Positions 11,187 through 63,958 of a stretch of DNA of 64,000 nucleotides are shown one piece after another. Made by a program: the position numbers and the translations under genes. Positions within the stretch are counted from its first letter, which is position 1; each line of letters opens with the position of its first letter. Below the pieces are notes generated by a model that was not told the DNA's origin, ran no database searches, and saw only the letters and a list, made by a program, of their open reading frames with translations. The stretch lies in NCBI RefSeq assembly GCF_058153355.1, contig NZ_CM177019.1. One strand, written 5' to 3'.

Positions 11187-11304
11187 AAGTCCTCCGTTAT
11201 GCACGGCTTAGCATAAGGAAGTACGTAACGTACGGCATTGTGCAAATGCCCAAAGGATGAGGAAGATGTATGGAGTTGTGGTGAAGTTCACAGATTGTAA
11301 GGAG

Positions 11305-11332
11305 AACCCCTTCCCGTTTTCAGGAAGGGGTT
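11305..11332. repeat. perfect 10-bp-arm palindrome just downstream of degP
   Basis: aaccccttcc-cgttttca-ggaaggggtt; 9 bp after the degP stop and upstream of cdaR; no U-tract on the degP strand. Confidence 0.6.
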
Positions 11333-11340
11333 GAGGAAGA

Positions 11341-12765
11341 TTACTGCATTAACAGATAGATGGTGCTGTCGCCGCGCTGAATATTCAGTGCCAGCACAGA
11401 CGGTTTGCTGTCGAGAACTTTACGCAGTTCAGCGATGTTTTTCACTGCCTGCTGGTTCGCACCAATAATCACATCACCTTTCTTCAGGCCGATCTGCGCA
11501 GCCGGAGTGCCCGTTTTCACGTTGTTCACCACCACGCCCTGATCTTTGCCTTTGTTGCTCATCTCAGCGCCTTCAATGCCGTTGAAGATGGTGCTGGAAT
11601 CAACCTGATTCTGGCTGCTCTGCTGCAGTTCCAGGTTCACGTTAACCTGCTTCCCGTCGCGCAGTAAGCCCAGGGTCAGTTTGCTGCCTACCGGCATAGT
11701 GCCCACCTGAGCACGCAGTGCGGCAAAGCTGCTGATTGGCTTACCGTTCAGTGAGGTGATCACATCACCCGCTTTAATGCCCGCTTTCGCGGCGGAAGAG
11801 TTCGGCAGAACCTGGCTTACGAAAGCACCGCGCTGGGCGTCAACTTTCATCGCTTTCGCCAGATCGGAGTTCAGCTCAGTCCCCATAATACCCAGCTCAC
11901 CGCGTTTCACCTGGCCGTATTCCACCATCTGCGAGGTCAGGTTTTTCACCATGTTGCTCGGGATAGCAAAACCGATACCGATGTTTCCGCCGTCCGGTGC
12001 GAGGATCGCGGTGTTGATACCAATCAGTTCGCCGTTCAGGTTAACCAGCGCGCCACCAGAGTTACCCCGGTTGATCGCTGCATCGGTCTGGATGAAGTTT
12101 TCGTAGTTTTCAGCGTTCAGGCCGCTACGTCCCAGCGCAGAGACAATCCCGGAAGTTACTGTCTCGCCCAGGCCGAACGGGTTACCAATTGCTACGGTGT
12201 AATCACCCACGCGCAGTGCATCAGAATCCGCCATCTTAATTGCGGTCAGGTTTTTCGGATTCTGGATCTGGATCAGCGCGATATCAGAGCGCGGATCTTT
12301 GCCAACCATCTTCGCGTCGAACTTACGACCATCGCTCAGCTGGACTTTAATCACCGTCGCGTTATCAACAACGTGGTTGTTGGTGACGACATAGCCTTTA
12401 TCGGCATCAATGATGACGCCGGAACCCAGCGCCATGAATTTTTGTTGCTGGCCGCCGCCATTACCGCCCTGGCCCCCCTGGCAGAACGGAGAGCTCTGGA
12501 ACGGAGAACCTTCCTGGCAGAACGGAGAATCATCACCGAAGAACTGCTGGAAATTACGCGGCATACGCGGCGTATTAACGGTTGTGCTACCTTCTACGTT
12601 AATGCTGACCACTGAAGGCATCACCTTTTCGAGCATTGGTGCAAGGCTTGGTATCTGCTGGGCTGTCGTTGCTGAAGAAGTCTCAGCCGCCGTTGCAGAG
12701 AGCGGAGATAACGCCAAACCTAAACTCAGAGCCAGTGCACTCAGTGCTAATGTGGTTTTTTTCAT
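11341..12765 (-). CDS. degP: periplasmic serine endoprotease DegP (HtrA)
   Basis: 474-aa ORF MKKTTLALSALALSLGLALSPLSATAAETSS..., signal peptide, trypsin-like domain and two PDZ domains. Confidence 0.97.
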   Translation of the reverse strand: MKKTTLALSALALSLGLALSPLSATAAETSSATTAQQIPSLAPMLEKVMPSVVSINVEGSTTVNTPRMPRNFQQFFGDDSPFCQEGSPFQSSPFCQGGQGGNGGGQQQKFMALGSGVIIDADKGYVVTNNHVVDNATVIKVQLSDGRKFDAKMVGKDPRSDIALIQIQNPKNLTAIKMADSDALRVGDYTVAIGNPFGLGETVTSGIVSALGRSGLNAENYENFIQTDAAINRGNSGGALVNLNGELIGINTAILAPDGGNIGIGFAIPSNMVKNLTSQMVEYGQVKRGELGIMGTELNSDLAKAMKVDAQRGAFVSQVLPNSSAAKAGIKAGDVITSLNGKPISSFAALRAQVGTMPVGSKLTLGLLRDGKQVNVNLELQQSSQNQVDSSTIFNGIEGAEMSNKGKDQGVVVNNVKTGTPAAQIGLKKGDVIIGANQQAVKNIAELRKVLDSKPSVLALNIQRGDSTIYLLMQ

Positions 12766-16648: not shown

Positions 16649-16659
16649 AGAGAGGAGAT

Positions 16660-16682
16660 GTGCCGGATAGCTTATCCGGCAC
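16660..16682. terminator. bidirectional hairpin between convergent yadS and erpA
   Basis: gtgccggata-gct-tatccggcac palindrome in the 46-bp convergent spacer. Confidence 0.5.
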
Positions 16683-16694
16683 ACGAATAAGAGA

Positions 16695-20047: not shown

Positions 20048-20054
20048 TGATTTT

Positions 20055-20081
20055 GCCTCGCCCACCGGGCGAGGCATTTTA
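20055..20081. terminator. hairpin terminator between convergent hemL and fhuB
   Basis: gcctcgccc-accg-ggcgaggc followed by ATTTTATT; fills almost the whole 34-bp spacer. Confidence 0.6.
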
Positions 20082-26113: not shown

Positions 26114-26220
26114 GAAACGCTGGCGGGTTCGCAAGCGGTACGCAATCTGAGCATTCCTGAGGGGTTAATAAACAATCAGATGAAAAGAAAGGGTTAATAC
26201 TTTGGGTAGGATGTTATTTT

Positions 26221-26244
26221 ACCGGATGGCGACTCGCCATCCGG
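26221..26244. repeat. palindromic hairpin downstream of mrcB
   Basis: accggatggcg-ac-tcgccatccggt; no U-tract on the mrcB strand, so not called as a canonical terminator. Confidence 0.45.
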
Positions 26245-26261
26245 TATGTCACGCTTAGACG

Positions 26262-37108: not shown

Positions 37109-37165
37109 ATATCTGCGTCACCCAACAGCCCAAGGGCTGTTGGGTCACTCAATAAGGATAGTGTT

Positions 37166-63929: not shown

Positions 63930-63958
63930 AAAAAAGCGGCGTGGTTAGCCGCTTTTTT
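63930..63958. terminator. bidirectional intrinsic terminator between yacH and lpd
   Basis: aaaaaagcggc-gtggtta-gccgctttttt: hairpin flanked by A-run and T-run, 13 nt after yacH stop. Confidence 0.75.

Follow-up and report, generated by a model that had tools for sequence, protein, structure and literature searches.

The window, a stretch of 64,000 nucleotides from RefSeq assembly GCF_058153355.1 (contig NZ_CM177019.1), carries degP and cdaR one after the other, both on the minus strand (Table 1). Between them, at window positions 11305-11332, lies the palindrome AACCCCTTCC-N8-GGAAGGGGTT, whose arms (11305-11314 and 11323-11332) are 10 nt each, 100% complementary and 8 nt apart, as the original prediction described them. 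Eight bases (tcttcctc) separate the degP TAA from the palindrome, which thus begins at the ninth base past the stop, just where it had been placed, and the distance to the cdaR ATG (11186) is 118 nt, close to the estimate of about 120 bp. The open reading frame that we take as degP carries that annotation in the 5,420 E. coli genomes in which it was matched by BLAST. The window is E. coli DNA, and over the region searched its identity is 100% with strain 2013C-4282 and about 98% with K-12; in an alignment with K-12 MG1655, the hairpin and its tail are the same.

The perfection of the palindrome had been singled out as worthy of attention, and the counts bear this out. With a minimum arm length of 10 bp, perfect palindromes give 13 matches at 7 loci in the 64-kb window, compared with 0.77 +/- 1.07 in dinucleotide shuffles. 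Perfect hairpins are therefore a truly enriched class in the window, and the degP palindrome is one of the seven loci. A chance origin of the degP palindrome is untenable because of its position and its conservation across species, which we describe below. The six further perfect palindromes with arms of this length lie at 16659-16683, 20054-20076, 26220-26246, 37120-37145, 58545-58572 and 63930-63958, and at least the last of these (AAAAAAGCGGC...GCCGCTTTTTT) resembles a bidirectional intrinsic terminator.

Table 1. Features between and including degP and cdaR, in window coordinates
Feature	Position	Strand	Basis
degP coding sequence, 474 aa, TAA at 11343-11341	11341..12765	-	ORF list; RefSeq annotation under BLAST matches
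degP 3' stem-loop	11305..11332	-	Fold energy and z; covariation, 53 Enterobacteriaceae sequences
5' arm of stem-loop, AACCCCUUCCUG	11332-11321	-	
Loop of stem-loop, AAAA	11320-11317	-	
3' arm of stem-loop, CGGGAAGGGGUU	11316-11305	-	
Degraded U-tract with tail, made up of the UU at the base of the stem and CUCCUUACAAUCUGU	11290..11306	-	T counts compared with other species
Equivalent of the degP RNA 3' end, ...GGGGUUCUC-3'	11302	-	Term-seq and SMRT-Cappable-seq, transferred via K-12 alignment
Untranslated C-rich, G-poor spacer from hairpin to cdaR ATG; candidate rut	11187..11304	-	C/G = 2.0; Rho score 4.57
CRP-type site TGTGAACTTCACCACA, assigned to cdaR regulation, not to the hairpin	11277..11292	-	Conserved in 69/81 species
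Conserved palindrome TTGGGCATTTGCACAA, candidate CdaR autoregulatory operator, outside the hairpin	11238..11253	-	Sequence conservation
cdaR coding sequence, 385 aa	10029..11186	-	ORF list and RefSeq annotation under BLAST matches

Fold and strand of the hairpin

In degP-sense RNA, the palindrome forms a 12-bp stem closed by an AAAA tetraloop, a U-G and a G-C pair being added to the 10-bp arms. In a 66-nt context, the sense fold reaches -24.2 kcal/mol (z = -5.38), and no shuffled sequence folds as well, as against a stem of only 10 bp, -19.4 kcal/mol and z = -1.74 for the antisense strand. The same bias runs through the 53 distinct orthologous sequences: stability is greater for the sense fold in 32 and for the antisense fold in 20 (Wilcoxon p = 0.006, without phylogeny correction), and G-U pairs occur in 28 of the 53 sense folds versus 8 of the 53 antisense folds. 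The gene is thus directly followed by a GC-rich stem-loop on its own sense strand, as is expected of an intrinsic terminator. A scan with Rfam covariance models returned chance-level matches only (E > 2, with scores far under the gathering thresholds).

Within E. coli, the 61-nt hairpin region was matched in 5,382 of 5,426 genomes and at most once in each. In three other strains that we aligned, the stem is kept apart from a change in one terminal A-U pair; this is a T-to-G substitution in an O157:H7 strain, and another of the aligned strains carries AAUA in place of AAAA in the loop. A REP/BIME repeat was considered and ruled out, since the 5,382 E. coli genomes with a match have the sequence at a single place each; as with REP elements, a GC-rich palindrome lies between genes, 3' of a coding sequence, but the degP hairpin is single-copy and lacks the REP consensus. 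In one assembly of CFT073 (NZ_CP158446.1), a 711-bp IS200C element (L085 1346-2056) has entered 6 nt past the degP stem, between CTCCTT and ACAATC. The element has a GC hairpin of its own at its degP-proximal end, and it parts the degP hairpin from the cdaR control region.

Conservation across Enterobacteriaceae

We read the DNA 3' of the degP stop in 80 degP loci, one per Enterobacteriaceae species, and scored a hairpin where a stem of -12 kcal/mol or better started within 40 nt of the stop. Stems were required to be GC-closed; choice by minimum energy over-extends some hairpins, in which the T-run pairs with upstream A's. Of 81 Enterobacteriaceae, 73 have a GC-closed hairpin after the degP stop, starting 5-12 nt past it in most genera, and the conservation that had been proposed as a check on the palindrome is thus borne out, with pairing maintained by compensatory change. 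The arms themselves read CCCCUUCC / GGAAGGGG in Escherichia, Citrobacter and Salmonella; GCCCCUG... / ...CAGGGGC in Enterobacter, Lelliottia, Leclercia and Silvania; CCCUUUCCCC / GGGGAAAGGG in Kluyvera and Pseudocitrobacter; CCCUCUUCCC / GGGAAGAGGG in Kosakonia; and GGCCGC / GCGGCC in Buttiauxella, Mangrovibacter and Franconibacter. The loop varies from about 3 to 9 nt between genera.

When 53 sequences were aligned with MAFFT and scored against the 12-bp stem of E. coli, 87.7% of the cells were paired and 9 of the 12 stem pairs showed changes on both sides. Compensatory cells numbered 78, compared with 33 +/- 4.5 in shuffles, a count that none of 500 shuffles attained. Sliding the 3' partners by 1-3 columns as a control lowered pairing to 50-71%, and RNAalifold, run without a supplied structure, found compensatory changes in 7 of 8 pairs. 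Pairing is kept while sequence and spacing vary, a pattern that points to an RNA helix rather than a protein-binding dyad.

The neighborhood of the hairpin varies as well. The next gene after degP is cdaR in 71 of the 80 loci; among the nine others, one (L005) ends too near degP to be judged, and most of the remaining eight, with no cdaR in the downstream flank, have a GC hairpin after degP. As judged from these flanks, the hairpin appears to travel with degP and not with cdaR.

A U-tract that differs between lineages

After the full 12-bp stem, the E. coli tail reads CUCCUUACAAUCUGU, with 3 T in 10 nt. If the two terminal A-U pairs are opened, the tract past the last G-C pair becomes UUCUCCUU, with 5 U in 8. 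The earlier observation that no U-run follows the palindrome on the degP strand stands for runs of at least three U. Across species, the 8 nt past that pair contain at least 6 U in 37 cases, 5 in 16 and at most 4 in 20. The tail is GGGG-TTTCTTTTT in Citrobacter, TTTTTTAT in Klebsiella, TTTTTT in Buttiauxella, TTCTCTTTTCAATTT in E. whittamii and Escherichia sp. E1V33 and TTCTCCTTACAATCT in E. coli, with even fewer U than in E. coli in Salmonella arizonae, Kosakonia and Pseudescherichia.

A T-rich tail follows the stem in most genera, and for this reason the ancestral form looks like a canonical intrinsic terminator, of which the U-tract would have decayed in several lineages and the hairpin would have been kept. 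An intrinsic terminator is expected to carry a U-rich tract of about 7-9 nt directly 3' of its stem. A simple terminator scan passed over the degP site of E. coli. The value of a d'Aubenton-Carafa-type score for this site is borderline, at -2.9, and lies between +20 and +50 for many orthologues.

Published 3' ends in K-12

Term-seq in LB at OD 0.4 places a degP 3' end of class 'primary' at K-12 position 182347 (+), with an average read count of 1319 and the flanking sequence ...GGGAAGGGGTTCTC|CTTACAATCT (Adams et al. 2021, eLife, PMC7815308). The stem ends at K-12 182344 by coordinate transfer through the K-12 alignment, so that the RNA 3' end falls 3 nt beyond it. The same position closes a full-length primary transcript in SMRT-Cappable-seq, from a TSS at 180843 to a TTS at 182347 (Yan et al. 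2018, Nat Commun, PMC6131387). Of the reads in this dataset, 42 begin at the TSS; the TTS is the end point of 16, a further 3 stop no more than 50 bp beyond it and 4 continue past it, reading through by a median of 253 nt (PMC6131387); these read numbers (16, 3 and 4) are small, those of the other dataset being tens to hundreds. In the same study, the TTS is typed 'novelTTS', which we take to mean that it matched no previously known terminator, and degP is a single-gene operon, with no degP-cdaR unit given (PMC6131387). A degP entry is absent from the TERMITe tables, the Cappable-seq TSS tables gave no match at the coordinates tried, and our literature search found no named degP terminator or degP 3'-UTR RNA.

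Inhibition of Rho changes the picture downstream. In DirectRNA-seq, coverage over 800 nt upstream and downstream of the 3' end is 123/41 without bicyclomycin and 185/282 with it, and the end is given a Rho score of 4.57 with the flag 'significant Rho termination region' (PMC7815308). It also receives an intrinsic-terminator score of 5.38, on a scale where 3.0 or more suggests intrinsic termination (PMC7815308). The downstream rise with bicyclomycin could come partly from induction of the cdaR promoter and not from read-through. An intrinsic terminator should have the RNA 3' end at or just past its hairpin, as both maps have it at 182347, and should be independent of Rho, which the Rho score of 4.57, resting on 800-nt windows, indirectly indicates that the degP end is not. 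Mapped 3' ends might have lain elsewhere and spoken against a terminator; the two published maps instead put the end of degP RNA at the hairpin and favor the terminator reading.

Sequence elements in front of cdaR

The spacer between the hairpin and cdaR holds sequence motifs that are themselves conserved. A CRP-type site starts 12 nt past the hairpin, and 69 of the 81 Enterobacteriaceae share its pattern, TGTGA-N6-[CT][CA]ACA. The terminator T-run leads straight into the TGTGA half-site in many genera. CRP has been found to bind upstream of cdaR by EMSA (PMC6390033) and by Footprint-seq (PMC12871828), and we infer that the published site is TGTGAACTTCACCACA at 11277-11292. Farther downstream, the conserved palindrome at 11238-11253 reads TTGTGCAnnTGCACAA in most genera. 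Two related palindromes, TTGTGCAAATGCTAAT and TTGAGCATATGCACAT, lie 42 bp apart in the K-12 garP-garD intergenic region (L082 5035-5050 and 5077-5092), and the sequence upstream of gudP has the GGCATTTGCC core only. Because of the two related copies in garP-garD, the 11238-11253 palindrome is a candidate CdaR operator; our literature search found no paper that gives a CdaR site. From sequence comparison, then, the plausible regulatory dyads of cdaR are the CRP-type site and this palindrome and not the degP hairpin.

Three further observations come from the same region. A -10-like TACAAT lies at 11294-11299, in the former T-tract, and a promoter scan pairs it with a weak -35, CTGAAA (11318-11323), in the hairpin loop; E. 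coli shares TACAAT with a single close Escherichia species, the sister lineages have TTCAAT, and a start from this putative element would land inside the CRP-type site. Looking for a cdaR promoter relative to the CRP-type site, we saw no convincing -10 at the standard class I or class II spacing. The scan also marked as terminator-like a small stem-loop on the minus strand at 11221-11233, in the spacer some 35 nt short of the cdaR start codon; it reads GTACGTTACGTAC, with TTCCTTATGC after it, and shows no conservation outside Escherichia among the orthologous downstream sequences.

Discussion

We conclude, with a probability of roughly 85%, that the palindrome encodes the 3'-terminal stem-loop of a monocistronic degP mRNA, serving both as a weak intrinsic terminator and as protection of the 3' end, with Rho as a backup. 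In this model, polymerase would pass the degP stop and the nascent RNA would fold into the 12-bp GC-rich hairpin. The U-tract being reduced in E. coli to UUCUCCUU, some polymerases would stop there, as at a weak intrinsic terminator. The remaining polymerases would enter the untranslated C-rich, G-poor spacer of 118 nt, where Rho could load and stop them within a few hundred nucleotides, which is consistent with the median read-through of 253 nt. Exonucleases acting in the 3'-5' direction would then trim the read-through RNAs to the hairpin, and both routes would converge on one stable 3' end, located 3 nt beyond the stem. The hairpin would in this way set the degP 3' end and shield the degP mRNA from exonucleases. 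The composition of the spacer makes it a candidate rut: its C/G of 2.0 over 118 nt ranks within the top 1% when 118-nt windows are taken across the 64-kb window, its first 78 nt have about 31% C and 13% G, and the C/G downstream of the hairpin has a median of 2.2 across species.

The proposed arrangement shares features with two known kinds of 3' end. Like canonical intrinsic terminators, the degP site has a GC-rich hairpin right past the stop and an RNA 3' end a few nucleotides on, and T-runs are clear at the orthologous positions in Citrobacter, Enterobacter and Klebsiella; it differs from them in that its U-tract in E. coli is interrupted (UUCUCCUUACAAUCU), in its published Rho-dependent read-through and in being missed by a simple scan. 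The other kind was described in E. coli by Dar & Sorek (2018, NAR, PMC6061677), who found that Rho-dependent transcripts have precise 3' ends directly past stable stem-loops without U-rich tails, that such stem-loops guard against PNPase and RNase II and that C-over-G (rut) sequence lies directly downstream of them.

The degP site resembles this class in most respects. Its stem-loop is stable, without a strong U-tract behind it or an A-tract upstream, and its steady-state 3' end is precise and immediately follows the stem; untranslated C-over-G sequence comes directly downstream; and read-through goes up when Rho is inhibited (123/41 to 185/282, published). The difference is that 5 of 8 tail positions in degP are still U and that the Chen-type model of Adams et al. 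rates the site as intrinsic, with 5.38; for these reasons the degP 3' end is a hybrid and not a pure member of the class. Among the possibilities that the original prediction had listed, that of a non-canonical terminator agrees with the data: in two maps the RNA ends 3 nt beyond the stem, the tail has a weak U-tract and read-through depends on Rho. A hairpin recognized by a protein or RNase, another of those possibilities, may apply in the limited sense that a stable 3' stem-loop would, by analogy with the class of Dar & Sorek, block exonucleases, and does not apply beyond it.

The third possibility on that list, a regulatory operator for cdaR, is not supported. Here, the palindrome would be a DNA dyad through which a dimeric regulator, such as CdaR or CRP, controls cdaR; in its favor are a perfect dyad 118 bp upstream of that gene and weak single half-site likenesses, with 1-2 mismatches, upstream of gar and gud. 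However, the half-site sequence differs across genera while base pairing is kept, the spacing between the arms varies from about 3 to 9 nt, the G-U pairs are sensible only in degP-strand RNA and the hairpin is retained where cdaR is missing. The motifs conserved as sequence occupy other parts of the spacer, at 12-66 nt past the hairpin. Comparison with regulator dyads, a check that had been suggested, is also unfavorable: searches with the hairpin arms upstream of garD/garP and gudP, promoter regions of the CdaR regulon, gave no full dyad, and the isolated 10-mer matches found there, with 1-2 mismatches, are near chance expectation. We regard an operator at this position as extremely improbable.

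Two other explanations were weighed. The hairpin could be an attenuator, a premature terminator in a long cdaR leader with its TSS inside the 3' end of degP, so that the end at 182347 would regulate cdaR rather than end degP. Adams et al. list 182347 among their candidate 5'-UTR 3' ends and give it a Rho score of 4.57, and their rule implies a primary TSS from Thomason 2015 lying 21-200 nt upstream (PMC7815308). The interval implied by this filter is K-12 182147-182327, or about 11322-11502 in the window, on the minus strand and inside the degP coding sequence. Against an attenuator, our promoter scan found no sigma-70-like promoter in the last 200 nt of degP on the minus strand, the hairpin sits 5-12 nt past the degP stop in most genera and persists without cdaR, and the likely promoter elements of cdaR (the CRP-type site and the conserved palindrome) are downstream of the hairpin. 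Alternatively, the hairpin could be the terminator of a short, stable sRNA derived from the 3' UTR of degP, or mark a specific RNase processing site, for which the TSS implied within 200 nt upstream and a stable stem-loop with a precisely mapped 3' end would speak. Hfq-dependent sRNAs need a long U-run, which the degP tail lacks; nor is there an Rfam family or a mention of such an RNA in the literature searched, and conservation is confined to the stem pairing, the bases from stop to stem varying with no conserved seed visible there. Capped full-length reads that run from the degP promoter (180843) to the hairpin at 182347 weigh against both explanations, and we hold the attenuator and the small RNA or processing site to be very improbable.

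The degP hairpin is real but not new: it falls among known kinds, and two public datasets already map the 3' end. Its importance beyond annotation is small. For annotation, degP is confirmed as a single-gene transcription unit with a defined hairpin end, and the cdaR control elements (CRP-type site and conserved palindrome) stand apart from the degP hairpin. At this one gene end the U-tract ranges between genera from strong to nearly absent, with the hairpin kept throughout, which indicates that intrinsic and Rho-dependent 3'-end formation intergrade and illustrates an already accepted view.

A more far-reaching reading of this variation, which we consider very unlikely, is that decay of the U-tract in E. 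coli, Salmonella, Kosakonia and others turned a tight intrinsic terminator into a leaky one policed by Rho, with degP transcription spilling into cdaR. If so, strong transcription of degP driven by sigma-E or Cpx could reach cdaR when Rho is limiting. In variants of the U-tract-decay reading, a T-to-A change that gave the -10-like TACAAT may have created a new start point, or the hairpin may end a short RNA from a start site inside degP.

Atlantibacter shows another arrangement. In the three loci from this genus (L028, L030 and L037), there is no hairpin directly after degP; about 45-80 nt past the degP stop, an operator-like palindrome, TTGTGCAATTGCCCAA, lies inside a GC hairpin of 13-15 bp that is followed by T7-8, so that a terminator-like structure coincides with a sequence resembling a protein site.
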